Virus record (IMG/VR): IMGVR_UViG_3300013314_000001 | Coordinates: 1 to 64,000 of that record | Direction: 5' to 3' (one strand) | Source: a virus | Length of the DNA stretch: 64,000 bases | Shown here: in pieces, positions 17,751-55,530 of the stretch | Layout of the letters: each line of letters begins with the position of its first letter | Numbering within the stretch: position 1 is the stretch's first letter | Made by a program: the position numbers and the translations under genes | Notes under the pieces: model-generated | Databases searched by the model: none | The model's input: the letters and a program-made list of their open reading frames with translations, nothing else | Told to the model about the DNA's origin: nothing

Positions 17751-17777
17751 TTCTTCAGCTATCTTAGTACTGACACT

Positions 17778-17795
17778 TATCAGCATATAACGATA
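17778..17795. promoter_or_regulatory. operator-like site O1 (TATCAGCATATAACGATA)
   Basis: The 13-nt core CAGCATATAACGA recurs inverted at 17835-17847 and directly at 30364-30376. Confidence 0.6.
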
Positions 17796-17834
17796 TTAAC
17801 CAAAGGTCAACCCCCTCTAGTATTTTTCTGATTG

Positions 17835-17848
17835 TCGTTATATGCTGA
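17835..17848. promoter_or_regulatory. operator-like site O2 (inverted copy)
   Basis: TCGTTATATGCTG is the exact reverse complement of the O1 core, 41 nt away. Confidence 0.6.
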
Positions 17849-17850
17849 AG

Positions 17851-17967
17851 AAAGGCAGAGGGCAGAGGGCAGAGGGCAGAAGGGAAGAGGTTATATAAGA
17901 CCTTAAGACTTCTGACACTATATTAAATCCATCCTTCTGCCTTCTGCCTTCTGCCCTCTGCCTTTCC
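17851..17967 (-). mobile_element. miniature hairpin element: inverted heptamer arrays (GGCAGAG/GGCAGAA)n without an ORF
   Basis: The left arm 17851-17890 and right arm 17933-17967 are reverse complements. The 42-nt loop contains GACACTATAT, matching (in reverse complement) ATATAGTGT next to the left arm of cassette 42966..43439. Confidence 0.65.
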
Positions 17968-17971
17968 TACT

Positions 17972-21585: not shown

Positions 21586-21950
21586 ATGCAATGTTTGGTG
21601 AGAGTGAATTTGATTCTAGCAATTCAGAGATTAAATCCCCGGTAATCGAACCAGTAGTGATAAAGGTCTTTGACATTATTGGGGAGAATGGAATATTTAT
21701 AAAGGATGGACAGCAGCTTTACTCAGTAGCTAAAACAGTTTTGGAAATTGATGGTGAAGTTGTACTTGATTTTGATGGTGTACTTCACGTAGACACTGCT
21801 TTCTTTAGCTATTCAGTTGGACACTTGATTAAAGATTACGGTCGCAATCAAATTAAGATAACTGGGCTTTCCCCACTTCAGCAACAGTTGGTAGAAAAAG
21901 TTATCCAGAACGCTGAGACTTACTATCAAAAGCAGGAACATCAACAGTAG
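21579..21950 (+). CDS. STAS-like DUF4325-type protein
   Basis: IKDGQQLYSVAKTVLEIDGEVVLDFDGVLHVDTAFFSYSVGHLIKDYG matches the DUF4325 pattern (..v.lDF.gv..vts.Fl....g.l). Confidence 0.5.
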   Translation: MLNAMFGESEFDSSNSEIKSPVIEPVVIKVFDIIGENGIFIKDGQQLYSVAKTVLEIDGEVVLDFDGVLHVDTAFFSYSVGHLIKDYGRNQIKITGLSPLQQQLVEKVIQNAETYYQKQEHQQ

Positions 21951-23178
21951 TCCAGCCCACATTCTTGTTAATGACTTTTTTCTCTAAACTTTTGATATGT
22001 GTAAAAGCAATATGGTGTAAGTTATGCCAATGCTCTAAATTCCCTAGCAGATTACGCAATGGGCTTTTAGAATTTAATGCTACCCACCTATGCAATTCTT
22101 CCTTGTGCGCCACCCATAATTTCTTGAGCAATGGCTTGTAGTACTTTTCCTCCCAAGGTATAATCCAGTTCCAGCACTCAGCTTTTTTGTCATATTCAAT
22201 CAAGACACGAAACGCACTAATAGCTGGGAAAAGGGTACTACGTGGGGCGTGAATACCTGGAACAATATATTCTGGGTTGCAGTGCATTACTTCAAATTCA
22301 CTACCAGTTTTAACTGTGGGTATACCTGATAGTAAATTATCTCTATCATCTCTAACTATCAGCCAGAATAAATATTCAAGATAACCAATGTCCTCAATCA
22401 AGTTTCCTATTAGCTGTGCATTCTCCAGCATAGAATCGTAGTAGCCGCTAAGATTGCTTATGTAAGTAATTGGGAATCTACCTGACCCAGAGTTAAGCCA
22501 ATAGAAACGGGGGGCTATCATACCAGCAACTTGCAGAACATGGTCAACACTGCAACGTGGATCGAGAGAGGTATCTGCTTGATTTTGATGATAAGCTACC
22601 TTCCAAGTTCCTGGTATATAAGTTTTTAACGTGTCAAATTTCCCCTCAGAATCGTAACGAGTTTTTTTGTCATGCCGATAAACTATCTGCCGATGTGAAG
22701 CAATGCGTCTATCATCCTTTGTGGGCTGTGCCAGCTTGATTGTCAATGGCACTCGCACTAAACTTAGGTCAACACCTTTCAAGGAAAAGTCATGTAGTGC
22801 CAGCATAGTATGCCTACCATCGGCGTGACCCTGCTGAATTTCGTTTTTACAGGTTCCAGGATTAAATATTAGAGTTACGGCTTTTATGCCGTCCTCTAAC
22901 TCTTCTACATGGTTAATATTGGCATAAAGGTATACACCCATATTTAACTCATGAAAGCGTTCTGGTTCATCTATTAAGCTTTGAACTATCATCTTGTAGA
23001 CAGTTTGCTTAGTGTTTGCTTTCCGTGGGTTAGGTGCATCAGGAATGTGCTGCTCATGCGGAAAGTACTTACCCAGTGCTAAACATCTAATCTCGGTGTG
23101 AGTTTCCCAATCACTAGGAAAATTGACTACTTGAAATGTTACTGTAGGTGCTAGGGTATTAGTTGGTAGTATTTTCAT
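21901..23178 (-). CDS. AIPR/DGQHR (ParB-fold)-like protein, candidate abortive-infection / exclusion gene
   Basis: 425 aa. NPRKANTKQTVYKMIVQSLIDEPERFHELNMGVYLYAN...IQQGHADGRHTMLAL parallels the AIPR pattern N.R....vn..I..tL..eP..F...NNGiti...i.NG.QT. It converges on and overlaps ORF 21579..21950 by 50 nt. Confidence 0.4.
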   Translation of the reverse strand: MKILPTNTLAPTVTFQVVNFPSDWETHTEIRCLALGKYFPHEQHIPDAPNPRKANTKQTVYKMIVQSLIDEPERFHELNMGVYLYANINHVEELEDGIKAVTLIFNPGTCKNEIQQGHADGRHTMLALHDFSLKGVDLSLVRVPLTIKLAQPTKDDRRIASHRQIVYRHDKKTRYDSEGKFDTLKTYIPGTWKVAYHQNQADTSLDPRCSVDHVLQVAGMIAPRFYWLNSGSGRFPITYISNLSGYYDSMLENAQLIGNLIEDIGYLEYLFWLIVRDDRDNLLSGIPTVKTGSEFEVMHCNPEYIVPGIHAPRSTLFPAISAFRVLIEYDKKAECWNWIIPWEEKYYKPLLKKLWVAHKEELHRWVALNSKSPLRNLLGNLEHWHNLHHIAFTHIKSLEKKVINKNVGWTTVDVPAFDSKSQRSG

Positions 23179-26997: not shown

Positions 26998-27008
26998 AGG
27001 CGTTAGCC
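26998..27008 (-). promoter_or_regulatory. motif B copy 10
   Basis: Perfect 11-mer. Its internal TAA is the stop of the ArdC-like gene, and the motif ends in TAATG overlapping the SSB ORF start. Confidence 0.85.
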
Positions 27009-27911
27009 CTCAGTCTCCTCGTACTCTTCTTTAATCCCCGCATTCTCAAGCAGGTAGCGACACGCCTTTTGAGCGAGAGACGCTGCTTTCATAAACGCTT
27101 TGTTATCATCTTTAAGAACTGATATCCAGTTATTCAGATAGTTAGCATGGTTCTGCAACTCGTAGTCCATGCCCAAAGCATTGGTCACAAACACCGAACC
27201 CAACTCAGCAACCAACTCCTCAAACGCATACTTGGGAGTTCCAAACCTGCCATGTTCCCGTGCTAACCGTTTCTCATGCCCAGTCCAGTGAACGTGTTCA
27301 TGTGCCAGGGTTGAGTAATACTCGTTAGCACTGGTGAAGTTTTCAAACTCTGGCATAAGAATAGTATCCTCACTTGGGATATAACAAGGTTGGTCGCCCA
27401 TGTGCTTGAGTTGCGATCGCTGGGCTTTGATAAACTCCTCAATGGTAATGATGCGCTTATCTGGGTTCATACCCTGAGCAACTTTCTTTTTAGCAAGCCA
27501 GTCAGCGATCGTAATCTTTCCGTTGGAATCATCAAACTGGTGGATGCTGAAAAGGTTGTACCACTTGGCAGTACGGTAAAACTCCTTCTCGCCAGTATCC
27601 TTGTTTTCCTTGCAGCCGGTGCCACCCCAATATAACCAAACACTCTTAGAGCCTCGTGTCACTTGCCAACCAACCTCACTAGCTTGTTTAAATGTGAGAA
27701 AGTAAGGATGCTCCCAATCATTAATCAACATCTCAATGGAACAAAGCAATGGGTTAACGCCCCGGTAGACATGACCAGTAATCGCATTCTGACAAGGGTT
27801 GCCATGCCATGACTTAACCCAAGGTTTCTTTCCTTGCTCCATTAAAGTTATCAACTTGGTAGTGAGTAGTTCATACTTGTCAATAGCTGGGTGTTTAACT
27901 TTAGTAGCCAT
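27003..27911 (-). CDS. ArdC-like protein (N-terminal ssDNA-binding domain plus zincin HExxH domain)
   Basis: ITGHVYRGVNPLLC...YFLTFKQASEVGWQVTRGSKS matches the ArdC/DUF1738 N-domain. LAHEHVHWTGH...YAFEELVAELGSVF matches the metalloprotease domain. Confidence 0.8.
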   Translation of the reverse strand: MATKVKHPAIDKYELLTTKLITLMEQGKKPWVKSWHGNPCQNAITGHVYRGVNPLLCSIEMLINDWEHPYFLTFKQASEVGWQVTRGSKSVWLYWGGTGCKENKDTGEKEFYRTAKWYNLFSIHQFDDSNGKITIADWLAKKKVAQGMNPDKRIITIEEFIKAQRSQLKHMGDQPCYIPSEDTILMPEFENFTSANEYYSTLAHEHVHWTGHEKRLAREHGRFGTPKYAFEELVAELGSVFVTNALGMDYELQNHANYLNNWISVLKDDNKAFMKAASLAQKACRYLLENAGIKEEYEETEG

Positions 27912-29441: not shown

Positions 29442-30287
29442 CTAAAACTTAACCTCCACTTTTCCATTAACAACTTCCAACCCCCGACGCTTGGCAAACT
29501 CTACCATCGCATTCTCAGCTTTACCCCCTCTGTTGCAGTCGTACATTTTCTGACAAATCTTAAGCCACTGTTCAATAGTCACCTCATCTTCTGCTACAAG
29601 TTGCTCTTTCTTGAAAGTTGCTTTGCCTGGAGAACCATCTATTTCAGCAAAGACGTAACTACCCTTATCCGTAGTAACCTTCCCACTACTACCAACCCAC
29701 CCGTCTGGGTTATCTACTACAACAAACCTATCTCCAACTGCTACGTTGGATACTGCAATAGGCTTTGTTGTCTGGTCTTTAGTGAGTAACTTCATCAGCG
29801 TATCTTTATCAATTTCCCATACCTTTACTTCATACTCAAACCCATAAGGCTTAAGTCTATCAGCTTTACGAATAGAGCTTAAAGTACAAACACCTTTAAC
29901 ACCTAAGTACTTCTGGAACCGATTAGCATTCTGCAACGCTGTACCATCGACACTCTTATTCATCCCAAAATAGTAAACGTGCGCTTCACCATCACAAAGC
30001 ATAGCAAAAATACGTTGTGTTAACTGGCGCAAATCAAACTTACCTTTGGGCGCTGCAAGTTGTAGTGAACGTACCCACCAGATAGCATCTGTTAACTCTT
30101 TCTTTTTCATGTTGGACATACACTTGCCGAATGTTGCCTTACAAATAATCTGCCCCAGTTCATGATTCATCTTAGAAGCGATCGCTTTCAATTGGCGAAT
30201 GGTAAAACTTTGAATATTCTCAATGAATCGAATGGAACTTAGATTAAAACTCTTGACCCAGTTGTAAGCTTCTTTAATGTATGACAT
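29442..30287 (-). CDS. hypothetical protein (HeH/SAP-like N-terminal motif)
   Basis: 281 aa. FTIRQLKAIASKM...KKKELTDAIW resembles the helix-extension-helix motif also seen in ORFs 54397 and 54866. Confidence 0.45.
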   Translation of the reverse strand: MSYIKEAYNWVKSFNLSSIRFIENIQSFTIRQLKAIASKMNHELGQIICKATFGKCMSNMKKKELTDAIWWVRSLQLAAPKGKFDLRQLTQRIFAMLCDGEAHVYYFGMNKSVDGTALQNANRFQKYLGVKGVCTLSSIRKADRLKPYGFEYEVKVWEIDKDTLMKLLTKDQTTKPIAVSNVAVGDRFVVVDNPDGWVGSSGKVTTDKGSYVFAEIDGSPGKATFKKEQLVAEDEVTIEQWLKICQKMYDCNRGGKAENAMVEFAKRRGLEVVNGKVEVKF

Positions 30288-30854: not shown

Positions 30855-30865
30855 AGGCGTTAGCC
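30855..30865 (-). promoter_or_regulatory. motif B copy 14
   Basis: Perfect 11-mer. Its internal TAA is the stop of the 1429-aa ORF. Confidence 0.85.
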
Positions 30866-33800
30866 TCCATAAAGTTTTTTTAGTCCTGCTTCGTCTTGTT
30901 GACGCTTCTGTTCTTGTTGACGTTGATATTCATTTATTCCCGCAGCTGCTAGGTAAACACCTCCTGCTGTGGGTAGCGCCCAATTAGGTATCTGGTATTG
31001 GGCGTTGGGTGTTGGAGATTGGGCATTAAAATTATCAGCAGTTACGTACTGGGGTTCTGGTAAGCCTGTAGGTGTTGGTGCTAATTGAGAGGGTATGTAC
31101 TGCTCTTTCTGTGGACTAGCATACTGAATACTACGTTGTGATGGTTGTACTGTGTAACTTTGATCGTAGTCTTGCTGGGTGGGTGGGCGTTGTGCTGGTT
31201 GAGAACTTAATAAACTGTTAACGTTAAAACTTCTACGGGCTGCGGTATCTGCTGGGGGAGTTTCTAGCAATTGGCTTAATGCCGCTTCACTGCTAGCTGG
31301 AATTAATAAAGGTTTGTCACGGTAAAAAGTAGGGTCAAATTTGTTGGAACTTTTAACTTCATAACCTGCATTATTAATTGCTGGGTCAGGACGAGTATCA
31401 ACAATTTTAATAGTGCCATCAGGTTGAACTACTTGTTTAAAATTGCTTAATAATTGGGCATTAGACTGTGGTTGAAGTAATCCAAGTGAGCCTCTGTAAG
31501 TATTCCCCATGTCAACAATTTGTTGAGTAGCCCTGCCTGTATCAACCATTGTTTGCACTTCAGGGTCAATCACTTCTTGAGAGTTATACTTTACAGGCAA
31601 GCTGACAGAGCGCTCTGAAGGTAAACCAATTGGTAATGAACCCGTGCCAACAGTAATACCTGGTTCAGACTCCTGTAAGTTTAACCCCGCTTGCTGCATC
31701 TGCTCTGCTAGATTAGCGGCGCGGCGCTTACCAGTGGTAGTAGTAATCTGAATCTCTGGCGCAGGTTCTATGCCCATCAGTTGAGAGTAAGCATTGGTTG
31801 CATTACCTATTTCACTTTGCAGGTGTTCCGCCCTCGCTTGAAGTTCGGCGGGGTTCATTCTTCTGGTGCTATCAAAAATATCTAATAAATCTTTTTGATT
31901 GACATAATCTACATCTTCCTCATGAGTTGTTCCATCAGCAGCCGTTATAGTTTTTCGCTTGTTAAAATAGTTTGCAGGAACTACTTGCTCAAGCCCAGCT
32001 TGGTTAGTATACTTTATAGTGCTACCAGTAAAGTTATTATCTTGGTAAACCGGACTATTAGCTGTAGGTGAAGTTTGGTAATTTGTCAACAGTGCATTAG
32101 TTCTGTTTAACTCTTGTTTTTTAGCTTCTATTGCAGAGACAATATCAGTAGGAGCAATGCTAGGGTCAGCATAGGCAGAAGCTAATCCTTTACCCGATTT
32201 CCTAATGTTGGTAATGTCATCCGCAGGGTTAAAGTTTAATTCTCCATCACGAGCGATCGCACCAAGTTCAGCGTCACTCGGTCCGTCTTGATTCCACCAC
32301 TGAACTTTGTCATCAAGTCCTACACGGGTTCTGCTATGCAGTTGAGTTTTTTCTGCTGAAAGTTGGTTAGTGCTTGGTAAATATTCGGTAGCAGTAGCTT
32401 CAGGGGTTAATGGATACTTTGCCCCATCTATGCCAACTCTAACATCAGCTAAATGTTGGTCAAGTAGAGTTTGCTTACTGTTGTCAACCGCAGGTGTAAG
32501 ATTTGTTGGTATACCTTTCTTTTGTAGTGACCTGCCTATCTCTCTTGCATAAGATAAGTCATCAGCATCTTTTGACTTAATCAAACTTTGATATTGTTGC
32601 AGTTCAGCAATTGTTTCTGGGTCTAAATATTTTGATGAATCCCCAGTAACAGTATCAAGTGGTGCTACAGATGGAGTGTATGGCATAAACTCTGGTTCAC
32701 TCATAACTCCCCCTGGTATTCTCTCTTCATGCATTACAGGGAGAGTCACACCCTGAATCTGACCACTGGGTATAACTGGCGCAATCTCATTACCAGTTTG
32801 AGTGATAGAATACTGCCGAGTGAACGGGTTTACTTGTGGCGGTTCTTGGTACTGCGCTGCTGCATCTCGCGCTACTTTATCAACTGCTTGCGATTCCAAA
32901 GTTAACGTGTCAGTGTCAGAACGCAGTCGTAAATAACTACCACCTTTGGGAGTTTCAATTTTAAGATAGCTAGGTTCTAGTGGATCGTAAAGCGTCTGGT
33001 CACGACTCTTGTATCTTGGACTTGGTTGTATCCCTCCACCCATCCATCGCCCACGGCTGCTAAGTTGTGTAGGGTCTAGTGTACCATTATTGCGCTGCAC
33101 TGAAAGAGATGCTATGCGCCTACCTTGATAATTGTCTGGATAGTGATAAGCATTGTCAGGATTGCCAGGATACTCAGCAACACCGTAGTCATTAACTGCG
33201 GCGAGGGTTAGGGGAGTTTCAGGAGTTGTTGGGAATCTTATAACGTCAGGACTATTAATTATGTTTTCCCTAACCTGATCGTAAGGAGCTATACTGTTTA
33301 ATGCTTGCTTTTGACTATGGTTATAATAATCTCCAAGGTTTGCTCTACGTGGTAAATTTAAAGCATTAACTCTGTCATTAAACAATTGTTCTTTAGCTTG
33401 TAAAAAACTTGCGTCAACTGAATCTAAATTAGAGATGATTTCATTACGTGCTTTGTTCTTAGTATAATATCTATCCTCATCATATTGACGCTTTAGTTTA
33501 TCAAAATTGTCTGCTTCTATATATGCACTTTGTTGTTGAATCTCTGCATCATTTGACCTGTCAATATTGCTGATAGTTCTTTGTGGTGTTGGTTCTAAAA
33601 ATTCAGATGCAGGTGTAAGGGCTGTTACTCCCTTGGGAACATAGTGGGTATTATCATTTAAACCATAATTAAACCCTGGATCTAAAACTATTCTATTTTG
33701 CCCTTTTTGAGTCAGTGTATTATTAACTGTTTCACTCAAAGCAAACAGAGGGTTAGCTGCTAGTAAATTTAGATTAATTTTGTTTCCATCTAAAAAGTTA

Positions 33801-35149
33801 CCGCGAAGTAAATTAACTTCGTCACTATCCATCCTTTCTAAATGCTGTCTTTTAACAACATTTCTTGGAACATCTACAGGATATCCCCCTTGAGAATAAG
33901 CCATGCGATCGCTGATAAAATCTTCTTGAGTTAAATCTGGTAGTGCTGCACTAGGTTGGTTTCTTCCCGATTGCCAAGTACCCCCTCGCGCTAAATCAGC
34001 AGCCGTCATACTAGCCCCTTGGCTTTGCTTGTTAGCACTAAAATAATTTAGGTATGGTTGCTGTCTATCCTCTACCCAAGTACCACTACCCCCAGCCCGT
34101 GCTACTGCGTCAATGGCATCTTTCCCTGGTTCATCAGGTGAACCCCAGTAAACAGGAATTGAATCGCTAGAACGATTTCTTAATGCTTCTTTCTGCAAGT
34201 CATCAATACTTTTTAGCTCCAGTCCTAATCCTTGTAATTCACCTCTATTAGGTAGAATAAATTCACCATCAGCTATAGTGTTACGTTTAACTAATTGATA
34301 TTTTCCTGTAGCATCTGTAGGTCTAATCTCATCATAGTTATTTAAGTTAGGGCTAGTTTTTAGAAACCTTTTATAAGTTCCCTCATTCATATACTGAGGA
34401 ACATTAACACCAGCCATTACATCTTGATACTGTTGCGGTGAAACAACTTCGCTTAAATGAACTTTAGCTGTGCTATTCTTATCAAAAATATAAGGTTGTA
34501 CTCCTTGATTATTTCTGCCTGCATTAACCCAGCGAATATCTCTATACTCACCATTAACTAAAACCTTATCAATCCCTGCCATTGTAGTATCTGAATACTG
34601 GGGATTCTTTAGGTTAGATTTAACAAAAGGTAAACTACCCCGTTGGTTGGGTACTGGTGAATCACCATAGCCAATAGCATTAGGGTTAAAAAATTGATTC
34701 TGTGCATCAGTCTTTTCATAACTATTATTTTTAGGATTAGTTTTACTTAATATAAAGGCTTGTTCTTGAGGCGTAAAAGAACTAAAGGGAATCGCTTCAG
34801 TTTCTAATGAACTAACCGGCAACCCATTTGTTGCAGTATCTCTGCCATATCCTTGTACCTTTGCATAGCGAACACCTGTTGGTTGCTTATCACCTGGATT
34901 AGTATAAACAACTCCTACCTTATCTTCAGGTTGTAAACGTCCTACCTGCGCTTTTGCAGAGTAGCTTTGAGTATCTACGCTCCCATCAAGCCCTGCTTTA
35001 AAAAAAGCTTTTGGTTGAGCCTGTGTATATTTTAATTCTGGATTAGCAGCAATATTAGCAGTCCGTGTCTGATTGTTTCTATTTACCATGTAAGCATCAA
35101 ACGCTTCTTTGGTTGCTAGTGATGCTTGTGAAAATGGATTAATAGCCAT
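30860..35149 (-). CDS. giant orphan protein (1429 aa, N/Q/P-rich, C-terminal hydrophobic segment)
   Basis: Longest ORF in the window, uninterrupted and immediately downstream of the polymerase-like gene. No catalytic motif recognised. The C-terminus WALPTAGGVYLAAAGI is followed by a Q/E/K-rich tail. Confidence 0.7.
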   Translation of the reverse strand: MAINPFSQASLATKEAFDAYMVNRNNQTRTANIAANPELKYTQAQPKAFFKAGLDGSVDTQSYSAKAQVGRLQPEDKVGVVYTNPGDKQPTGVRYAKVQGYGRDTATNGLPVSSLETEAIPFSSFTPQEQAFILSKTNPKNNSYEKTDAQNQFFNPNAIGYGDSPVPNQRGSLPFVKSNLKNPQYSDTTMAGIDKVLVNGEYRDIRWVNAGRNNQGVQPYIFDKNSTAKVHLSEVVSPQQYQDVMAGVNVPQYMNEGTYKRFLKTSPNLNNYDEIRPTDATGKYQLVKRNTIADGEFILPNRGELQGLGLELKSIDDLQKEALRNRSSDSIPVYWGSPDEPGKDAIDAVARAGGSGTWVEDRQQPYLNYFSANKQSQGASMTAADLARGGTWQSGRNQPSAALPDLTQEDFISDRMAYSQGGYPVDVPRNVVKRQHLERMDSDEVNLLRGNFLDGNKINLNLLAANPLFALSETVNNTLTQKGQNRIVLDPGFNYGLNDNTHYVPKGVTALTPASEFLEPTPQRTISNIDRSNDAEIQQQSAYIEADNFDKLKRQYDEDRYYTKNKARNEIISNLDSVDASFLQAKEQLFNDRVNALNLPRRANLGDYYNHSQKQALNSIAPYDQVRENIINSPDVIRFPTTPETPLTLAAVNDYGVAEYPGNPDNAYHYPDNYQGRRIASLSVQRNNGTLDPTQLSSRGRWMGGGIQPSPRYKSRDQTLYDPLEPSYLKIETPKGGSYLRLRSDTDTLTLESQAVDKVARDAAAQYQEPPQVNPFTRQYSITQTGNEIAPVIPSGQIQGVTLPVMHEERIPGGVMSEPEFMPYTPSVAPLDTVTGDSSKYLDPETIAELQQYQSLIKSKDADDLSYAREIGRSLQKKGIPTNLTPAVDNSKQTLLDQHLADVRVGIDGAKYPLTPEATATEYLPSTNQLSAEKTQLHSRTRVGLDDKVQWWNQDGPSDAELGAIARDGELNFNPADDITNIRKSGKGLASAYADPSIAPTDIVSAIEAKKQELNRTNALLTNYQTSPTANSPVYQDNNFTGSTIKYTNQAGLEQVVPANYFNKRKTITAADGTTHEEDVDYVNQKDLLDIFDSTRRMNPAELQARAEHLQSEIGNATNAYSQLMGIEPAPEIQITTTTGKRRAANLAEQMQQAGLNLQESEPGITVGTGSLPIGLPSERSVSLPVKYNSQEVIDPEVQTMVDTGRATQQIVDMGNTYRGSLGLLQPQSNAQLLSNFKQVVQPDGTIKIVDTRPDPAINNAGYEVKSSNKFDPTFYRDKPLLIPASSEAALSQLLETPPADTAARRSFNVNSLLSSQPAQRPPTQQDYDQSYTVQPSQRSIQYASPQKEQYIPSQLAPTPTGLPEPQYVTADNFNAQSPTPNAQYQIPNWALPTAGGVYLAAAGINEYQRQQEQKRQQDEAGLKKLYGG

Positions 35150-35244
35150 AGGATTTTTACTAATAATTTTTATTAGTTTTCCTTGGCTTGCCCTAAATAA
35201 AAAAATCTCCCACCCGAAAGTAGGAGAGTATATGCATCTCGGCT

Positions 35245-37563
35245 CTAGAAATTATCTAGAACCAACACCTCATTAAAGCCATTCTTGGTAGTTACTTGTC
35301 CTTCAAACCAAACATCTTTTAGCAATGTCGGTGAATCATTAACTGACAAGTAGCCTAAGTACTTACCATCCTCATCCTGTGCAAACAGATACCCATTAGT
35401 ATGAACAACCAAACGTAGGGGCATAACCTCACCCTGCCACTGATACCCAGGATAATCGCTGTGATTAGTCCCTGCTGCTGTCTCACAAACTTGGAGTTTA
35501 TTAATTCTCAATGTCTGCAAGCGTTCACAGATTTCCTCAAGCCCTACCAAAAAACAAATGAATGTGTTACTCTGGTCTATGCTATTGCTATGGTGCTTGG
35601 CGTACCAAAACGCGCCTACTGCATCAACGCGACTCTTCTTAGATGTGCAACCATCTAGAAGGGTTTTCCACTTTTTAACTACTGCCTTACGTTTCTCAAC
35701 GTAGGTTGTCACTGTGCTGCTATAAACAAACTCACCTTTTTGTACAGAGTCTATTTCTTCTTTTGAAACAGTTCTGATTGCCGCAGTGTACTCAGCACAC
35801 CGCAGTTTGGCTTTTTTCAGCCAATTGGCGTGAGGCTGGGGGAACAGTGGTTTAAACACACTGAACTTTGACTTACGCAGATTTGGCGCAACCCAGAGTT
35901 TATTCATCTCACGCACTAACCGAGAGATAGTATCACCGCGACCGTCATCTGTTACCAACTGAGTTAGATAACATTCCTTGTTCTTATTCTCGTTAAGCCA
36001 AGCGATATCTCCTTTCAGTTGTTTGGATATTTCGTTAAGCAGTTTTTTATCTGGTGGTGTCGCACCCTTGAGAGAGTCAACAGCCGCTTGCAACTGGGGA
36101 ACAAGCTTGTTAACTAAATCCTCTCTACCCATTGCCCAAGCCTTAGCAATTAACCAAGTAATAAGCCCAGTGTCATTAGCCATTGACTTAGTTGCTATTT
36201 CGCCAAGCGTTCCAACTACGGGCTGTTTCTTAGGTTTGATGTCGCCTTGATTCATGGGAGATTCACCAAAGTTCTTGACTGCGATCGCAACGTTAGGTAA
36301 CTTGTAAGTAGGTAGCCATTGAAGGTGGTCCCCATCAAAATCTCGACCTAATTTAAGTGCAGTAGCTTGATTAACTACTAACACGCCTTCGCAATCTTCC
36401 CAAGTTTCAAGGTGAACATTGCGCCAAACCTTGATGTCGTATTTCCAACGGCAAGGGTAAGGGAAAACTATTACCTCTTCTCCCTCTGGTAGCCCTGGAA
36501 TGTAGATGCAATCGTTAGGTAACGACTCATCGGGCATCACCATGCTGGAATTGAACTTGACCGAGCCAGCAGTTGCTAGAGTTATCCAACGACCACGGAA
36601 CATTTCAGTTACCTTGTCAACTACCCAAGGATGACTGGTTAGCTGACCATGAATATCAGCACCTACAAGCCGCGCTAGTGTAGACTTGTATTCATTCTCC
36701 TCTATTTCAGTATCGTAATCCTCACTACCCAGTAGACACTCTGCCAGTTTCCTCTGGTTAGTGAGTGTTTCATTTATGCCATTAGCAGCCTTGATGGTTG
36801 CTGGCAAGATATCTTTCTCAACAGCATCCCAAGGAAGATACTGAAGGACTGAGTAACTGAGACTGCAACGTCGCCAGTCTAAGCGCTTGGTAGCGTGCTT
36901 AATCTCAGGGGAGGCAAACACTAAACCAAGTGTTAATTCTGGTAAGTCATACTCACCGGGAGCTACCTTGTTGCCTTTGAAGCAACTCACTGGTAGCACT
37001 AAGTCATAGTCAGAGTTTTCAACCTTCTCACTGTAAGCAATAGTGCCTTTAGCAATCCAAGCTGGAAACTGGCTAGCAGCACGGAATTGGAACGGATTGT
37101 TTACCGATTCGGTTAATAAATATGAAAGTCGAAAACCTGTTTTTCCGTGGCAATCCCCTACATCGTACTCAGTATCATCATCAGCAACTACCAATAACTT
37201 AACTGCGATCGTAATTATCTCCTTACACTCAGTCGTTAAGTTACTACCATAGCTGATTGCATTGGCATTGCTTCCAAAGAACCGAGTGAAATAATCCCCG
37301 CCTCCCTTGGCAAATAAAACCCTACCATGCTTTCTAGCACCAGACGCACCGACTAAGTGGTAATCTTCAAAACCAGTGTCAAGGATTTTTGCGATCGCAG
37401 CATAGTTAGGTTTCTTCTCTGCTAGCATTGAGGAGACATCCCCAACTGCAAACTTAACATCTGGGTAAAGATGCCCTAGTAAGGTATTGCGATAGCTAAT
37501 CTCACAACCTTCAGGCAACCAAACCTTATCTACCAAATCAAAAATGGGAAGTATTAAACTCAC
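35245..37563 (-). CDS. two-barrel (double-psi beta-barrel) polymerase-like protein, cellular-RdRP / YonO-like
   Basis: GTG start preceded by AGGAG. EEVIVFPYPCRWKYDIKVW...VLVVNQATALKLGRDFDGDHLQW (DFDGD at nt 36328-36342) matches the catalytic barrel of RNAP beta-prime (NADFDGD) and RdRPs (NPCLHPGDVRV...DLDGD). PFQFRAASQFPAWIAKGTIAY (nt 37033-37095) matches the first RdRP barrel (FQIR..G.KG). Confidence 0.6.
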   Translation of the reverse strand: MSLILPIFDLVDKVWLPEGCEISYRNTLLGHLYPDVKFAVGDVSSMLAEKKPNYAAIAKILDTGFEDYHLVGASGARKHGRVLFAKGGGDYFTRFFGSNANAISYGSNLTTECKEIITIAVKLLVVADDDTEYDVGDCHGKTGFRLSYLLTESVNNPFQFRAASQFPAWIAKGTIAYSEKVENSDYDLVLPVSCFKGNKVAPGEYDLPELTLGLVFASPEIKHATKRLDWRRCSLSYSVLQYLPWDAVEKDILPATIKAANGINETLTNQRKLAECLLGSEDYDTEIEENEYKSTLARLVGADIHGQLTSHPWVVDKVTEMFRGRWITLATAGSVKFNSSMVMPDESLPNDCIYIPGLPEGEEVIVFPYPCRWKYDIKVWRNVHLETWEDCEGVLVVNQATALKLGRDFDGDHLQWLPTYKLPNVAIAVKNFGESPMNQGDIKPKKQPVVGTLGEIATKSMANDTGLITWLIAKAWAMGREDLVNKLVPQLQAAVDSLKGATPPDKKLLNEISKQLKGDIAWLNENKNKECYLTQLVTDDGRGDTISRLVREMNKLWVAPNLRKSKFSVFKPLFPQPHANWLKKAKLRCAEYTAAIRTVSKEEIDSVQKGEFVYSSTVTTYVEKRKAVVKKWKTLLDGCTSKKSRVDAVGAFWYAKHHSNSIDQSNTFICFLVGLEEICERLQTLRINKLQVCETAAGTNHSDYPGYQWQGEVMPLRLVVHTNGYLFAQDEDGKYLGYLSVNDSPTLLKDVWFEGQVTTKNGFNEVLVLDNF

Positions 37564-37626
37564 TGAGAACTCCTAGTAACTAGAAGCCCCAAGTAATTAA
37601 ATTACTCAGGGCAAATTAGCTACTAA

Positions 37627-37659
37627 CAGCGCGAAGCGTTTAAAAGAAAAATATTTCTT
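37627..37659 (-). promoter_or_regulatory. motif A copy 1 (promoter-like), upstream of the polymerase-like gene
   Basis: Minus strand AAGAAATATTTTTCTTTTAAACGCTTCGCGCTG, 63 nt before GTG 37563. A stem-loop lies in the leader. Confidence 0.75.
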
Positions 37660-37667: not shown

Positions 37668-38174
37668 TTAGATATGCTTCCAAGAATGGCGATTAATTAT
37701 TCGTGATGCAGTAGATTGATTAATAGCGTATAACTTTGCTAATTCTTCAATATTCATTATCCCTTGAGAATGTATTTCTCTCATACGAATAACTTCTTTT
37801 TCTGTCAATTTACTGACAGGACTTTTGGAACCACACCTTAACTCAGACTTGGAATTCTGAATTACTTTTCCTCTCCCCTTAGCCCACATATCTTTAATAT
37901 TTTCTGACTGTGTACCTAATCGTAAGTGCTGAGGATTAACACAGGCTGGCACATCACATTCGTGTAATATCACCAAGCCTTTTGGCACATCTTTTTTATT
38001 TGCAATAATCCAGCTAATTCTGTGGGAAGGAACAGAAATGCCTAATATACTAAGGCAACCATACTTCATTGACGTAGTTGTTCCAGCCTTCCAAAGCCAA
38101 CAACCATCAGCCTTTTCAACTTTACTCCAAAATCTTTCTAACACATCAGGAGTAAGATGCTCTAATATATTCAT
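37668..38174 (-). CDS. free-standing HNH homing-type endonuclease
   Basis: GCWLWKAGTT...HRISWIIANKKDVPKGLVILHECDVPACVNPQHLRLGTQSENIKDM is the HNH_3 pattern, with a C-terminal HTH (INQSTASRIINR). Paralogue of the partial ORF 63835..64000. Confidence 0.8.
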   Translation of the reverse strand: MNILEHLTPDVLERFWSKVEKADGCWLWKAGTTTSMKYGCLSILGISVPSHRISWIIANKKDVPKGLVILHECDVPACVNPQHLRLGTQSENIKDMWAKGRGKVIQNSKSELRCGSKSPVSKLTEKEVIRMREIHSQGIMNIEELAKLYAINQSTASRIINRHSWKHI

Positions 38175-38296
38175 GTTGACGTACCGTAATTACGTTGACC
38201 GCTTGGGTGTGCGACTAACACACTCAGGCATATAACTATTATCCACTATTTTGGTAACAGCATCCGGGAACTCCCACAATTAGTACGAGTTCTTTT

Positions 38297-38324
38297 CAGC
38301 GCGAAGCGTTCAGAGAAAAATATT
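38297..38324 (-). promoter_or_regulatory. motif A copy 2 (variant), upstream of the HNH gene
   Basis: Minus strand AATATTTTTCTCTGAACGCTTCGCGCTG. Confidence 0.7.
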
Positions 38325-38704: not shown

Positions 38705-38735
38705 TTTTTAATTCCCAAAATCTACACTTCCTCCA

Positions 38736-38767
38736 CGACGCGAAGCGTTTCAAGAAAAATATTTCTT
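38736..38767 (-). promoter_or_regulatory. motif A copy 3
   Basis: Minus strand AAGAAATATTTTTCTTGAAACGCTTCGCGTCG, 31 nt before ATG 38704. Confidence 0.75.
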
Positions 38768-42965: not shown

Positions 42966-43439
42966 AAAGGCAGAAGGTAGAAGGCAGAAGGCAGAAGGTA
43001 AGAGGATTAGATATGATATAGTGTAAATACTTCAAACTTTTAGCCTTCAAACTTATGAGTTATAAGACTCAGTTCATTTGGAAAAGAGCAGTTCAGTTAT
43101 CAGTTAACTGCTATAAATTTACTGAAGACTTTCCTAAAACAGAAGCATACGGATTAGTTAGTCAAATTAGACGCGCATCTGTTTCTGTACCTAGCAACAT
43201 AGCTGAAGGATATGGACGAAAAACAACAGGTGAATATGTTCATTTTTTGCATATATCACTTGGTTCTTTGCGTGAACTAGATACACAATTAATAATTGCA
43301 AGAGAAGTTGGTTTAAAAAACAGGAATCTCTTTGAACAAATTTTGAATGAAGTAGAAGAAATGCAAAGCATATTAGTCTCTTCACTTAATAAAATTAAAT
43401 CCTAACCTTCTGCCCTCTGCCTTCCCCCTTCTGCCTTCT
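42966..43439 (+). mobile_element. hairpin-bounded cassette: inverted heptamer arrays flanking a four-helix-bundle gene
   Basis: The left arm 42966-43005 (GGCAGAAGG repeats) is the reverse complement of the right arm 43406-43439 (CCTTCTGCC repeats). A miniature ORF-less copy lies at 17851..17967. Confidence 0.6.
43055..43405 (+). CDS. four-helix-bundle protein (23S rRNA intervening-sequence protein / Avd-like family)
   Basis: WKRAVQLSVNCYKFTEDFPKTEAYGLVSQIRRASVSVPSNIAEGYGRKT..EYVHFLHISLGSLRELDTQL is the signature of this family. Confidence 0.8.
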   Translation: MSYKTQFIWKRAVQLSVNCYKFTEDFPKTEAYGLVSQIRRASVSVPSNIAEGYGRKTTGEYVHFLHISLGSLRELDTQLIIAREVGLKNRNLFEQILNEVEEMQSILVSSLNKIKS

Positions 43440-43549: not shown

Positions 43550-44497
43550 ATGCTAGCCATTAAGGAAAATTTTAAACTAATCAATGGACTAGGGGTTGCA
43601 ATTGTCTCTCGCAACCTAGAATTAATTCAGCAAATTATACAGGATTTAGGCTCAAGAAACAAGGGAGAAATTCAACGCCTTTGGATAAGTATTGAGTCTG
43701 ACTTATCTGAGGAGGATATTAAGTGGTTCTACGTAACAGTCAAAGAACTTTTCTCGACTGAATTAGAAGAATTACCTCCATTATCTCCTCAAGAAAACCA
43801 CATTAAAGCTGAGATTGAAAACCGACTCTCATTATTTTTGGCATCTTTTCTTGAGAGAGGAACAGACTTATCGGTTCTGAGAAGCGACAAATTATATCGT
43901 GAAGACTATCCTACCTGGGGAAGTTACTGCCGTTTTGCTCTTGGAATTCACCCTGCCTACGCTGACAGATTGATCCGGGCTGCTGATATTGTTAAGGATT
44001 TGAAGCCAATTGGCGTGAATAGTATTCTCCCTGGCAATGAACTTATTGTCAGAGAACTCAGCAGAATTGAGCCTGAGCTACGGCAAGTTGTATGGGAACA
44101 GGTGGTTAGGTCTGGGGATAAAATCACAGCTGACAACGTGCGTCGGGTTCATGATACCTACGAAGTTGTCAAACCCATTGAATTAATTGTTGGGGATTTT
44201 AAACCAGGACAAATAGTAGCAATCAATTCACCCGATACAAAACTATCTATTGGAAGAGTCATAAGTATTACTCCCAATAAAAGATATAAGATTAAATCTG
44301 GTATTGAAATATTTACTTTTGTCCCAAAAAGTATTGAGGCATTAGATTTTAGTCAGTATATATTTAGCAGAATTGAAAAGCTAACTACATCTGATAAATT
44401 GCAAGTTCAATTAATAGGTCAATCATTCTTTTACTGCAAAGTAATTGAAGATTGGCAAATTAAACTACTATCTTTTTTAGAGGAAATATGTCTTTAG
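43550..44497 (+). CDS. hypothetical DNA-binding protein (ParB/KorB-like HTH segment)
   Basis: LRSDKLYREDYPTWGSYCRFALGIHPAYADRLIRAADIVKDL resembles the HTH module of ParB-like phage proteins. The assignment is weak. Confidence 0.35.
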   Translation: MLAIKENFKLINGLGVAIVSRNLELIQQIIQDLGSRNKGEIQRLWISIESDLSEEDIKWFYVTVKELFSTELEELPPLSPQENHIKAEIENRLSLFLASFLERGTDLSVLRSDKLYREDYPTWGSYCRFALGIHPAYADRLIRAADIVKDLKPIGVNSILPGNELIVRELSRIEPELRQVVWEQVVRSGDKITADNVRRVHDTYEVVKPIELIVGDFKPGQIVAINSPDTKLSIGRVISITPNKRYKIKSGIEIFTFVPKSIEALDFSQYIFSRIEKLTTSDKLQVQLIGQSFFYCKVIEDWQIKLLSFLEEICL

Positions 44498-45138
44498 AAT
44501 TGTTTATTGCTTACGCTAATACTAGAGATATTCCTACTCGTAATATGCTAGTCAAGCTTAATCTAAACCTTGCACGAAAGGTAGCGCACTCTATAAAAAA
44601 GTTTTGTGCTGAACCCTATGAAGACTTAGAACAAGAGGCGGCGATTGGATTAGTAAGAAGTGTAGAGCATTTCGATCCACATCGCGGATTAAAGTTTAGT
44701 AGCTTTGCAGTGCCATATATTCATGGCAAACTCTTGCAGTATCTCAGGGACAAAGGGCATTCAATTAGGCTTACTCAAGCTATGCAAACCCTTAATAACA
44801 AAGGGAAAAAAGCAGCAGCATTGTTATCTCAAAAGCTAGGACGTACAGCGACACTCTCAGAGGTGGCAGCACATCTTGGATGTTGTGCTGATGAGTATAG
44901 AGCAGCAGTTCAGGCAAATATCATCTCTTCTAACTGTGAGCCTATTAATTTAGACTCAGAAGAAGTAATGAGAATTGAGAGTAATAACCAGTACATTTAT
45001 TACGCCCCTGAGATTAAGATTAATTGGGATTCTTTGACTCAGAGTGAACTAGGAACGCTAGAAAACAAAAGCGGTGAACGCCGGAGACTATGGCACAGCC
45101 TAGCGAAAATGAATGCCCCCTATAATAACGACGGCTAG
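44488..45138 (+). CDS. sigma-70 family RNA polymerase sigma factor
   Basis: Region 2: EDLEQEAAIGLVRSVEHFDPHRGLKFSSFAVPYIHGKLLQYLRD. Has a region 3/4-like HTH TLSEVAAHLGCCADEY. Confidence 0.8.
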   Translation: MSLELFIAYANTRDIPTRNMLVKLNLNLARKVAHSIKKFCAEPYEDLEQEAAIGLVRSVEHFDPHRGLKFSSFAVPYIHGKLLQYLRDKGHSIRLTQAMQTLNNKGKKAAALLSQKLGRTATLSEVAAHLGCCADEYRAAVQANIISSNCEPINLDSEEVMRIESNNQYIYYAPEIKINWDSLTQSELGTLENKSGERRRLWHSLAKMNAPYNNDG

Positions 45139-46636
45139 CGGTTTACCTGGAGGAGAAGGTAATCTTGGTAAATTCTATTCTCAAGCTTGGCACGATGAAC
45201 AAGCTCGTATATTTGCTGCGTCTAAGCAAGGTAGACGAGCGCAAATTGTCGTTGATAAATATTCTAATAATCCACAAGTAAATAATATAGTTGACAATAC
45301 TCATTTTGAACCTTGGACTAATTATGATGCTCAAACTGTTCAGCCTGTAAATAAATCAGCAGGGCGAGTGATTGCTGATAAAAATAATGATTTAAATATA
45401 GATGACCCTTGGACTACGCAAGAATCCACATTACCTGCATCAATTTTAGAAAGTAATATTTTTCCTGGGGCTAAAGCTGCTAGTCCAATTATCAATGACC
45501 CAATAGCAGGGCGTAGTCCTTGGTTACATGATGACTCAGCGCCTCAAATTCCCACGGGCTATCAATCTATTCCTATACAATCACACATCCCAGAGTTTGA
45601 AAAGTTTGACCAAAGCTACAGACAAGTAAGCAATAATCCACCTGACGCAATACCTACAGGCTATCAAAAAGAATCTACTCAACCCCATATCCCAGGCTTT
45701 GAAAAGTTTGACCAAAGCTATCGCAATGTATCTACTGCACCCGGACAGATCCCAACCACTTCACCTTACTATGTAGAACAAGCTGCATTGCCTTTGGAAA
45801 CTGGACATGAGCAAACAGAACTTCCTTTGTATTCTCAAACCTACGATCCAACTGCTCAAGTTCCCTACGAAGCTTTTATAAAACCTCAGTATGGTTTTTT
45901 TGATAGTATTCGCAAGGGCTTAAGTAGTGGGTTTGATTATAGCATTAACAGTGAAGAACATCCACACGCTAAATCAGTTGTCTTTGAGCGCGCTCCTAGT
46001 TATGAATATGATTACTTACCCCCATCTGGACAAGCCGCTTATTTTGCAGGAAGAATCGCCGGAGATGCAGCTGGATATGGAACTAAACATTTTCTCTGGA
46101 GAACTCAACCAGAAGATATTGCTGGCACATATTCAGGTAAAGGTATTAGAGAAGCTGGCGGCTCTCGATTTGCTAATGTAGTAGGTCCAGTTGCCGTTAC
46201 TTCAGCAATGGCACTAGGTTCTAACATTTATAATCCATTTAATTTAGCGCAAGGTGGTAGACCTTTAGGCTACGCTGCATCTTCCCCAGACCCTAACGAC
46301 CCAAGAGAATCGACAGCGCCAATCTATGATATGGCAATTGAGAAAGGATTTCTTGGGCATCGGGGACGGTTACTACCTTGGGAACAATTTAAACAAGAAC
46401 GCCCTGACGTAAGCTACCAACAATATTCTGATTATCAAAGTTATCTCAGTAATAAAGATGATAACTTTCTGCGTAATGCAACACTAGGCATAGTCAAAGG
46501 TGACATGAATGGTGTTAATGGCCCAGAGATTTCTATTGGTGGATACTCTGTTACTCCGATGGGGGCAGCTGCTGCACTGGGAACTTATGCGGCGATTCGT
46601 CATGGCATTGGTCGGGTTGGGATGTTGACTCGGTAA
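45113..46636 (+). CDS. hypothetical protein (507 aa), probable virion/morphogenesis-associated
   Basis: Contains an internal duplicated segment IPTGYQ..S.Q.HIP.FEKFDQSYR. Function is by context only. Confidence 0.45.
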   Translation: MPPIITTASGLPGGEGNLGKFYSQAWHDEQARIFAASKQGRRAQIVVDKYSNNPQVNNIVDNTHFEPWTNYDAQTVQPVNKSAGRVIADKNNDLNIDDPWTTQESTLPASILESNIFPGAKAASPIINDPIAGRSPWLHDDSAPQIPTGYQSIPIQSHIPEFEKFDQSYRQVSNNPPDAIPTGYQKESTQPHIPGFEKFDQSYRNVSTAPGQIPTTSPYYVEQAALPLETGHEQTELPLYSQTYDPTAQVPYEAFIKPQYGFFDSIRKGLSSGFDYSINSEEHPHAKSVVFERAPSYEYDYLPPSGQAAYFAGRIAGDAAGYGTKHFLWRTQPEDIAGTYSGKGIREAGGSRFANVVGPVAVTSAMALGSNIYNPFNLAQGGRPLGYAASSPDPNDPRESTAPIYDMAIEKGFLGHRGRLLPWEQFKQERPDVSYQQYSDYQSYLSNKDDNFLRNATLGIVKGDMNGVNGPEISIGGYSVTPMGAAAALGTYAAIRHGIGRVGMLTR

Positions 46637-54865: not shown

Positions 54866-55453
54866 TTAATGAGATTGAATCTTGGCGATGATTTCAGCTT
54901 TAGTGCCATCAGCCTTAAAGCCAAGTTTCTTAGCAATGACTTTCAACTGCTTGACTGTACAAGCCCAAAGTTCTTCGGTTGTCCAATCGCTAGCAAAGAT
55001 TGCAGGTGCAACTTCAGCCCAATCATCAAAGTTATTACCAGAAGTAATACCTGGAAATAATTTAACAACGCTGATGGACATATCCCACTCATCACGAATG
55101 ATAGGACGTACAGCCGCAGGTGCAGCTAGACACTTCTCAAGTAACTTGAAAGTATTAATACGGTTAGAGGGAAGATTAGATTTACCGCATGACTTGTAGA
55201 GTGTGCTGTAAACTTCGGGAGTAGCCAAAAACTCGATAGCACGGCACTTACGATTAGCTGAGTAAGGCGCACCGGACTGCCATGAATCCTTGATGATTGT
55301 ACCCTTGAATGAACCAGTAACTTCGCATGCTTCCGAGAAGTACAAGCGACCGTAAACTGTACCGACTTTAACTAGAATACCAGATGCAGAGATAAAGTCA
55401 AGTCCAGCTACGATAAGTTGGAATTCAGGGCGAACGATTGTAGATGTAGACAT
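54866..55453 (-). CDS. protein with C-terminal HeH/SAP motif
   Basis: Start refined to ATG 55453, preceded by AGGAG. C-terminal TVKQLKVIAKKLGFKADGTKAEIIAKI. Confidence 0.5.
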   Translation of the reverse strand: MSTSTIVRPEFQLIVAGLDFISASGILVKVGTVYGRLYFSEACEVTGSFKGTIIKDSWQSGAPYSANRKCRAIEFLATPEVYSTLYKSCGKSNLPSNRINTFKLLEKCLAAPAAVRPIIRDEWDMSISVVKLFPGITSGNNFDDWAEVAPAIFASDWTTEELWACTVKQLKVIAKKLGFKADGTKAEIIAKIQSH

Positions 55454-55499
55454 GATTGAAACTCCTAAAAAATATGAAACTGATTTACAACAAAACATC

Positions 55500-55530
55500 C
55501 ACGCGAAGCGTTTAAAGAAAAATATTTCTT
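55500..55530 (-). promoter_or_regulatory. motif A copy 4
   Basis: Minus strand AAGAAATATTTTTCTTTAAACGCTTCGCGTG, 46 nt before ATG 55453. Confidence 0.75.

Follow-up and report, generated by a model that had tools for sequence, protein, structure and literature searches.

Virus record IMGVR_UViG_3300013314_000001 raises the question of what a double-stranded DNA (dsDNA) phage does with a polymerase whose best structural matches are the RNA-dependent RNA polymerases (RdRPs) of maize and Neurospora. We analysed positions 1 to 64,000 of this record (hereafter the window), which make up 64 kb of a 75.7-kb contig; about 11.7 kb of the contig lies beyond the window. The gene in question is on the minus strand at 35245..37563, begins with GTG and encodes 772 amino acids (aa). 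A preliminary description made from the sequence had taken its product for a single-chain double-psi-beta-barrel polymerase resembling cellular RdRPs, serving either as the phage transcriptase or as a primase-like enzyme. The proposed identity is borne out by a family profile, an orthologue and a structural model, and the two functions are still the right pair to weigh. On profile and model evidence we regard the fold as established, that of a single-chain two-barrel polymerase of the RdRP/QDE-1-like clade. By analogy with characterised phage enzymes, we favour, with a probability of about 0.5, the reading that the protein is a non-virion phage transcriptase for one class of genes, with a phage sigma factor serving another.

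Fold and active site of the polymerase

Direct searches with the polymerase sequence were uninformative. Pfam returned no significant match, with TcpC alone appearing below threshold, and the RdRP family PF05183 did not match at E ≤ 1 and missed its gathering threshold. A phmmer search of the PDB gave only noise (eS21). No match was obtained by tblastn against 50,697 phage records at E ≤ 1e-5, nor with the distant homologue P0051 against the same phage collection, and a close homologue is absent from the isolated phages in the collection searched. Neither Pfam nor PHROGs matched a Toprim or AEP domain in the protein, so a primase function would need a fold other than that of DnaG or AEP enzymes. 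The direct searches gave nothing useful; homology to polymerases is visible only through profiles and structure.

The PHROGs profiles placed the protein in an unannotated family, phrog_34895 (E 6e-36), and gave a weak match over aa 326-420 to phrog_4291, named 'RNA-dependent RNA polymerase' (E 7e-4). A metagenome protein search yielded 62 homologues, mostly uncultured, a few of them binned with Rivularia, Coleofasciculus and Microcoleus, which are filamentous cyanobacteria. The profile of a 35-member family alignment, A1, matched Neurospora QDE-1 at the catalytic barrel (E 0.004), with DFDGD aligned to DYDGD, and five of the 35 members matched PF05183 at E ≤ 0.01. The orthologue P0032, which is 41% identical, scored 24.7 bits against the PF05183 gathering cut-off of 23.8 bits; its match extends over aa 129-504, against profile positions 162-538 of 582, and so covers both barrels. 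These comparisons indicate that the homology to the PF05183 RdRPs is real, though the window polymerase falls outside the curated family. The A1 profile reached 1,199 clusters (50% identity) at E ≤ 1e-3 and 386 at E ≤ 1e-30; the 150 clusters listed vary in length between about 370 and 2,700 aa.

We carried out the fold check that had been proposed, building an AlphaFold2 model on A1 (mean predicted local distance difference test score 88.4; predicted template-modelling (TM) score 0.84) and comparing it with the PDB by Foldseek. The two-barrel fold was found. Maize RDR2 was the top match (7w82; E 2.8e-16, TM score 0.52), followed by QDE-1 (2j7n; E 2.5e-14) and then Arabidopsis RDR2; together the RDR2 and QDE-1 matches ranged from E 2.8e-16 to 1e-12 over about 800 columns, at TM scores of about 0.5. 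The Thermus phage proteins gp64 (8f72) and gp62 (8f5m) matched at E 1.7e-11, with TM scores up to 0.58 on the target, and gp66 (6vr4) of phi14:2, a crAss-like phage, at E 1.3e-5, with TM scores of 0.28/0.11. After gp66 came beta'/Rpb1-type subunits of cellular and viral multisubunit RNA polymerases (RNAPs). Foldseek gave a probability of 1.00 for RDR2, QDE-1, gp64, gp62 and gp66. In BFVD the best matches were uncultured-phage proteins, some named 'RNA dependent RNA polymerase', together with P23-45 A7XX94. The likeness to crAss-like virion RNAPs suggested earlier is present as a fold match, but a weak one; YonO, also invoked, did not appear by name among the top 50 PDB or BFVD matches, and no direct comparison with YonO was made. 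The identification as a two-barrel polymerase draws on the A1 profile, the P0032 match to Pfam and the AlphaFold2 and Foldseek matches.

Both barrel motifs read by the preliminary description in the one 772-aa chain are present. The first-barrel motif PFQFRAASQFPAWIAKGTIAY (aa 157-177; 37033..37095, minus strand), assigned by position and family alignment, contains the basic residues R161 and K172. The catalytic barrel (aa 363-416; 36316..36477, minus strand), assigned by the QDE-1 profile alignment and its invariant residues, runs from EVIVFPYPCRWK through GRDFDGDHLQW; the peptide EVIVFPYPCRWKYDIKVW occupies aa 363-380 and GRDFDGDHLQW aa 406-416. DFDGD (aa 408-412; nucleotides (nt) 36342-36328) is the sole DxDxD of the protein, and motif mapping agrees with the earlier placement of the Asp triad codons, D408-F-D410-G-D412, at 36328..36342 on the minus strand. 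This triad, predicted to bind metal, is kept in all 35 members of A1. Also invariant in the alignment are D137, K172, G203, P370, N382, G466, Q492, D496 and K499, as are D408, D410 and D412 individually, and Q159, F160, R161 and G173 are near-invariant (at least 94%). Two-barrel polymerases receive two basic residues in the active site from the second barrel (PMC7824862). By alignment, R161 (34/35 members) and K172 (35/35), both inside QFR...AKG, are the two conserved basic residues expected here. In the AlphaFold2 model, helices 464-477 and 481-497, which come after the catalytic barrel, bear the invariant G466, Q492, D496 and K499 (LQxAVDSLK) and may correspond to the bridge helix of two-barrel polymerases. 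The resemblance to these polymerases is far beyond chance.

One residue of the usual signature is displaced. The expression [RK]xP...DxDxD, with which two-barrel RNAPs were filtered in PMC10770324 Supplementary Data 4, has no match in the window polymerase. Position 368 (nt 36460-36462) is Pro in 18/35 and Arg in 12/35 members of A1, the cyanophage group having Pro368 (FPYPCRWK) and distant family members keeping Arg (TRSP, VRYP). Position 407 (nt 36343-36345), just before the first catalytic Asp, is Arg in every member without R368 (GRDFDGD); conversely, 11 of the 12 members with R368 are without R407 (QADFDGD, GGDFDFD), and P0053 alone has both. In the alignment the exchange looks like the relocation of one functional side chain rather than its loss. 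In bacterial RNAP structures the residue aligned with Arg368 presumably contacts the ribose of the nucleoside triphosphate (NTP), and the exchange may bear on the choice between NTPs and deoxynucleoside triphosphates (dNTPs) or on template selectivity. It is a lineage-specific point of structure and function that is open to testing.

The exchange is also relevant to whether the enzyme uses some other template or substrate, either as a true RdRP on phage or host RNA (for example the X hairpins described below, or antisense or double-stranded RNA) or as a dNTP-using two-barrel enzyme like archaeal PolD. The top fold matches, RDR2 and QDE-1, are RNA-templated; X is a hairpin of the transcribed strand with a conserved UAAC loop and a compensated stem; the lineage has Pro for Arg368, with Arg at 407 instead; and no DNA polymerase was detected in the window open reading frames (ORFs) scanned. 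That scan, with Pfam and PHROGs hidden Markov models, covered every window ORF of at least 200 aa and eleven shorter ones, and left many ORFs unannotated. Against such an activity, QDE-1 accepts DNA templates too (PMC9508822), PolD is not among the top 50 Foldseek matches, dsDNA phages have no known need for an RdRP, and the arginine appears to have been relocated and not lost. We consider an enzyme of this kind very improbable.

Candidate transcription signals in the cyanophage lineage

The polymerase gene is conserved in a distinct cyanophage lineage of at least ten near-complete genomes of 55-80 kb. We compared the window with nine related phage loci (L001, L002, L006, L007 and L010-L014), whose polymerases are 41-77% identical. 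All nine have the same arrangement, with the polymerase, a giant protein of 1,300-1,600 aa and a protein of about 280 aa, and on the other side a protein of about 310 aa followed by a sigma factor. In the window the sigma-70-family factor (44488..45138, plus strand; Pfam Sigma70_r2, E 7e-14, and Sigma70_r3) overlaps the gene of a 315-aa protein; the two (43550-45138, plus strand) form a pair conserved in 9/9 loci and divergent from the polymerase cluster, and a homologue of the sigma factor lies within 10 kb of the polymerase gene in 9/9 relatives. Sigma factors are unusual in phages of this size. This one had been missed by the preliminary description, and its presence means that the polymerase need not be the sole transcription determinant encoded by the phage.

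The polymerase gene is preceded by a repeated motif, Y. Seven copies of this 26-nt element, AATATTTTTCTTTAAACGCTTCGCGC on the minus strand, occur in the window, against 0.06 expected (37625-37650, 38295-38320, 38734-38759, 55497-55522, 56087-56112, 56661-56686 and 57078-57103). The genes downstream, all on the minus strand, are those of the polymerase, an HNH endonuclease and a 105-aa ORF, and four small ORFs at 54866-57048. The copy identified by repeat count as a candidate promoter of the polymerase gene, AATATTTTTCTTTTAAACGCTTCGCGC (37625..37650, minus strand), lies about 62 nt before the start codon. Y often follows an intrinsic terminator and usually stands 10-25 nt before a Shine-Dalgarno sequence, which is then followed by a start codon. 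A sigma-70 promoter was considered for Y and rejected; there is no consistent -35/-10 pair at 16-18-nt spacing, and the 'TGTAAT' seen downstream belongs to the Shine-Dalgarno region. In its arrangement Y resembles a phage-specific promoter, for which it is the best candidate. In L001 four copies of the Y core precede four consecutive genes, including those of RNase H and the polymerase, with one copy 44 nt before the polymerase gene; in L002 a different repeat, TAAGTGACCTGTCTTTGACTTA, occurs in three copies upstream of the polymerase gene.

Between Y and the coding sequence, a scan for terminator-like structures found a hairpin of 12 pairs in the 5' leader (37586..37612, minus strand). At the other end, 18 nt past the polymerase stop codon and before the next gene, an intrinsic-terminator-like hairpin and T-run, TCTCCTACTTTCGGGTGGGAGA then TTTTTTTATT, lies at 35206..35227 on the minus strand, an arrangement that points to a separate transcription unit for the polymerase gene.

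In the reading that we favour, the polymerase would be made from this small unit, comprising the Y motif, the leader hairpin and the intrinsic terminator. It would be an active single-subunit two-barrel RNAP, of the clade of QDE-1, RDR2 and the single-subunit RNAPs of phages and plasmids, and, going by its characterised relatives, a non-virion, DNA-dependent enzyme polymerising ribonucleotides on a DNA template (PMC10770324; PMC9508822). It would transcribe one temporal class of phage genes, and the phage sigma factor would redirect the host RNAP to another. Such a division of labour would be like that of Thermus phage P23-45, in which gp64 serves the early and middle genes and the host RNAP the late genes. 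The polymerase may also supply RNA for the start of DNA replication; transcriptase and priming roles are not mutually exclusive. Several observations point this way. The characterised phage relatives gp64 and gp66 are DNA-dependent transcriptases (PMC10770324). The conserved motifs, which are not of sigma-70 type, occur alongside two phage-encoded candidate readers, and the transcription unit of the polymerase gene is self-contained and early in type. The position of the gene, amid genes of early or replication type and at a distance from those of the head, also fits a non-virion enzyme.

A second repeated element is the hairpin X. The preliminary description had put forward two repeats, motifs A and B, as templates for a polymerase assay; these are real repeated elements, but one of them, X, is not promoter-like in position at several copies. 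X reads GGCGTTAGCC on the plus strand, at 11909, 12972, 14755, 15533, 16417, 17741, 23732, 24683, 26999, 27943, 30424, 30856, 38383, 41141 and 57297, with a variant at 28788. On the minus strand it reads AGGC-TAAC-GCCT, with GTGA(T/A) 11-13 nt on. There are 15 exact copies in the window and 18 within one mismatch, where 1.8 would be expected; the exact copies have a single orientation and are confined to minus-strand gene clusters. An unvarying loop with its closing pair (C-TAAC-G) is shared by ten phages, namely the window phage, L001, L002, L006, L007 and L010-L014. The stems vary, with GGGAC/GTCCC in L002, AGCC/GGCT in L007, and TGGC/GCCA, GGGC/GCCC, ATGC/GCAT and AAGC/GCTT in L006 and L010-L014. 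Two-sided changes affect three of the four pairs; these instances had been selected because they pair, and the information in them is confined to the range of pair types. Of 70 CTAACG sites on the polymerase-sense strand in the window, L001, L002, L006 and L007, 30 have a perfect 4-bp stem, against 0/19 on the opposite strand and 0/33 in L004, L005 and cyanophage S-EIV1. These compensated and strand-specific stems identify X, at the sequence level, as a real stem-loop element. It was not found in the distant polymerase-bearing loci L004, L005, L015 and L016.

X was found at the head of each minus-strand cluster, and we considered it as a hairpin promoter of the N4 type. In 6 of the 15 exact copies the preceding ORF ends at the TAA of the loop. 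For several copies an intrinsic terminator comes within the next 20-40 nt, and after it either Y or a sigma-70-like promoter. The copy at 17741 lies downstream of the sigma-70-like promoter TTGACC-17-TATGCT. We rejected the N4-like promoter because of this placement at stop codons and terminators and the position of the 17741 copy. One conserved copy lies within the giant ORF of L006 and L010-L014. A role at the RNA level, or as a polymerase-specific signal for termination or pausing, is no less likely than one as a promoter. A conserved 26-nt motif is present in the terminators of the P23-45 virion RNAP (PMC10770324).

The X hairpins also allow a different account of the enzyme, which we think doubtful. 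The polymerase may act on single-stranded nucleic acid at these conserved elements, with their C-TAAC-G loop and GTGAT about 12 nt downstream, and not as a promoter-driven transcriptase. In one version it may serve as primase or replication initiator and, jointly with the phage single-stranded DNA-binding protein (SSB) and UvrD-like helicase, make up for the missing functions of primase and polymerase; in another it may be an RNA-templated polymerase. Neurospora has a trio of QDE-1, RPA and a RecQ helicase, and priming at X hairpins, if true, would give a bacterial-virus counterpart to it.

Other elements accompany Y and X. The Z motif, a sigma-70-like promoter, occurs at 17780, 17837 and 30363. 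The divergent intergenic region at 17770-17970 holds two sigma-70-like promoters with CGTTATATGCTGA in common, the third copy of which is the one at 30363, and a long inverted repeat, GGCAGAGGGCAGAGGGCAGAGGGCAGAAGG (17856-17885) and CCTTCTGCCTTCTGCCTTCTGCCCTCTGCC (17933-17962). The repeat CCTTCTGCC recurs at 43406-43439, upstream of the operon that holds the sigma factor. This repeat region (17770-17970/43406-43439) may serve as operator, origin or bidirectional terminator. The repeats of L004 are collagen-like coding repeats and irrelevant to these cis-elements.

Neighbouring genes, host and a possible role in priming

Downstream of the polymerase gene lies that of the giant partner, 1,429 aa (30860..35149, minus strand), which adjoins the polymerase gene or is a few small genes away in 9/9 loci. 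The protein is rich in Q, N, P and S, low in complexity, and closes with a hydrophobic stretch and charged tail. Pfam, PHROG and PDB-profile searches gave no match, and a conserved DxDxD is lacking; nothing in these results points to a second polymerase. The 281-aa partner (29442..30287, minus strand), with the N-terminal motif LTIRQLKA..LGQVI, has no Pfam or PHROG family match; a homologue lies in the same neighbourhood in 9/9 loci.

The giant neighbour bears on the idea that the polymerase is packaged in the virion, perhaps with this protein, and injected to transcribe the first genes from Y promoters, as in crAss-like phages and N4. Ejected internal virion proteins tend to be low in complexity, as is this co-conserved neighbour. 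Y precedes the polymerase gene itself, and if Y is the polymerase's own promoter a pre-made enzyme would be needed; one record of a distant homologue, in Lactococcus phage 1706, bears the annotation 'structural protein'. Virion RNAPs of crAss-like and N4-like phages are, however, giant proteins encoded among structural genes. The window polymerase has 772 aa, and its gene sits in a cluster with genes for SSB, a UvrD-like helicase and an ArdC-like protein, apart from those for head and tail. In fold, the match to the virion RNAP of crAss is weak (TM 0.28/0.11), and, judged by the better match to gp64, this small protein would have the full clamp-type architecture of that non-virion enzyme. We therefore regard virion delivery as improbable.

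The same cluster lends itself to a role in replication. The enzyme could be a replication primase or origin-priming RNAP that makes primers, or an R-loop transcript processed by RNase H, perhaps on SSB-coated single-stranded DNA, for extension by a host DNA polymerase. It would then fill the slot of the DnaG or AEP primase of other phages and conjugative plasmids. The preliminary description had held that the window is without a T7-like RNAP, multisubunit RNAP subunits, a DNA polymerase and a primase, which is true of the scanned ORFs by Pfam and PHROGs; a missing primase nevertheless proves little, since it is common for temperate phages to rely on the entire replisome of the host. In 7/9 related loci, homologues of SSB and UvrD turned up no more than 10 kb from the polymerase gene. 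ArdC-like proteins, such as the one encoded at 27003-27911 (minus strand; single-stranded DNA-binding and metalloprotease domains), are typical of conjugative plasmids. On the plasmid-like cyanobacterial contig L005, a homologue of the polymerase has a Toprim topoisomerase, ParB, ParA and a large helicase as its neighbours, a setting in which conjugative plasmids often carry a primase.

RNase H also recurs near the polymerase gene. It is encoded directly upstream of it in L001 (77% identical) and two genes upstream in the more distant L004, where DNA ligase and HU genes are next door, and the same RNase H is also near the polymerase in L015. In the window the place directly upstream is taken by an HNH endonuclease gene (Pfam HNH_3; 37668-38174, minus strand), which probably reflects insertion of, or replacement by, a homing endonuclease. 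Neither the window nor most members of the lineage have RNase H, which counts against priming. A primase role was proposed by Iyer and Aravind in 2011, with RNase H fusions in cyanobacterial versions, as summarised in PMC3417536. Against it, no characterised two-barrel single-subunit enzyme is known as a dedicated primase, and the phage relatives are transcriptases (PMC10770324). As a side observation, the UvrD of L001 carries an intein (Pfam Intein_splicing) and that of the window does not.

S-EIV1 (KJ410740.1; L008 and L009), a polar freshwater cyanophage, offers a comparison from outside the lineage. It is the only isolated phage with shared head genes, its portal being 36% identical; the genes in common, 30-46% identical, are those of a TerS-like protein, TerL, portal, major capsid protein and a 507-aa protein (45113-46636 in the window), and the rest of the genome is unrelated. 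S-EIV1 carries a conventional primase, PolA and SSB; homologues of polymerase, sigma factor and giant protein are all missing from it, as are the X hairpins. A canonical primase and PolA where the polymerase gene is missing would suit the priming role, yet since only head and packaging genes are common, the difference is a module swap and not a one-for-one replacement. Nor can S-EIV1 serve as a natural experiment separating sigma factor from polymerase; it is without both, and without the hairpins, and so does not discriminate. Taking both sides together, we hold a dedicated priming function to be possible, with odds well short of even.

Returning to the non-virion transcriptase, we weigh several points against it. 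The arginine of the [RK]xP signature is replaced by Pro368. Y and X cannot be assigned to the polymerase over the sigma factor, since each phage of the lineage has kept both proteins. L006 and L007 have no Y-like motif before the polymerase gene, with terminator-like hairpins there instead. X, lying between stop codon and intrinsic terminator and in one copy downstream of a sigma-70-like promoter, is a poor promoter candidate. The neighbours are of replication type (SSB, UvrD and ArdC, with RNase H in two relatives), and the scan detected neither primase nor DNA polymerase in the window.

The window represents a temperate-type cyanophage, with genes for terminase, portal, capsid and integrase. 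The HMM scan identified the large terminase at 52044-53549, the portal at 58671-60791 and the major head protein at 62685-63698; the integrase is of the tyrosine type, and a methyltransferase, SSB and UvrD-like helicase are also encoded. A cyanobacterial host is supported by the binned homologues, an NblA gene in the relative L007, the kinship of the head genes with S-EIV1, and 10-mers containing GCGATCGC, which we take to be the cyanobacterial HIP1 palindrome and which are among the commonest in the window. Other products are an AIPR abortive-infection-type protein (21901-23178, minus strand), a homologue of '23S rRNA intervening sequence protein' (43055-43405, plus strand) and a protein with F5/8 type C and GDSL-lipase domains (1483-3108, plus strand), probably a tail or host-recognition enzyme.

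Relation to known polymerases

Among characterised phage relatives, those nearest in modelled fold are the non-virion RNAPs of Thermus phages, P23-45 gp64 (8f72) and P74-26 gp62 (8f5m). They too are single-chain two-barrel enzymes, of about 600 aa against 772 aa here. P23-45 has conserved phage-specific promoter motifs and uses gp64 beside the host RNAP, which serves another gene class (PMC10770324), a likeness that the window phage would share. The identity to gp64 and gp62 is only 12-14%, however, and Pro368 takes the place of their [RK]xP arginine. Unlike P23-45, the window phage is a cyanophage of temperate type that itself encodes a sigma factor, and no virion RNAP fused to a tape-measure protein was detected in it.

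QDE-1 (2j7n) and RDR2 (7w82), representing PF05183, are the best structural matches and have in common with the window polymerase the first-barrel motif QFR...KG and the catalytic loop D(F/Y)DGD. The window polymerase differs in being 150-250 aa shorter and in being encoded by a dsDNA phage, with no RNA interference (RNAi) context. The RdRP-like polymerases of bacterial mobile elements and of Firmicute and Actinobacteria phages (PHROG 4291) belong to the same superfamily and have the catalytic loop in common, and either a primase or an RNAP function has been put forward for them; tblastn matches to Lactococcus phage 1706 and Streptomyces phage Scap1 were weak (E 0.05-3). They differ in carrying helix-turn-helix domains at both ends and in having the gene at the genome end, and show no significant similarity outside the catalytic barrel. 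The two-barrel catalytic core of phi14:2 gp66 (6vr4) is of the same RdRP-like clade, within a virion protein of 2,180 aa against 772 aa.

The enzyme class is known and the cyanophage lineage is unstudied. Computational work has already described RdRP-like polymerases from phages, transposon-like elements and cyanobacteria (Iyer and Aravind 2011, summarised in PMC3417536), and PMC10770324 Supplementary Data 4 contains a family label 'Cyano_RUMTOR_01356' with DFDGD, a family to which the window polymerase may belong. Our literature search found no paper combining a cyanophage with a two-barrel RNAP. The earlier remark that no such cyanophage enzyme was known to have been characterised is in keeping with that search, but has to be set beside the computational descriptions.

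Single-subunit two-barrel RNAPs are thought to be phage-borne ancestors of the eukaryotic RNAi polymerases, and to our knowledge only a handful have been studied, namely YonO, P23-45 gp64 and gp96, crAss gp66 and QDE-1. The lineage described here combines a two-barrel enzyme, its own sigma factor and abundant conserved cis-elements, with no recognisable primase or DNA polymerase in the window. It is a compact system in which to ask how two phage transcription devices are split between gene classes, and whether two-barrel enzymes can prime replication, as was proposed years ago.

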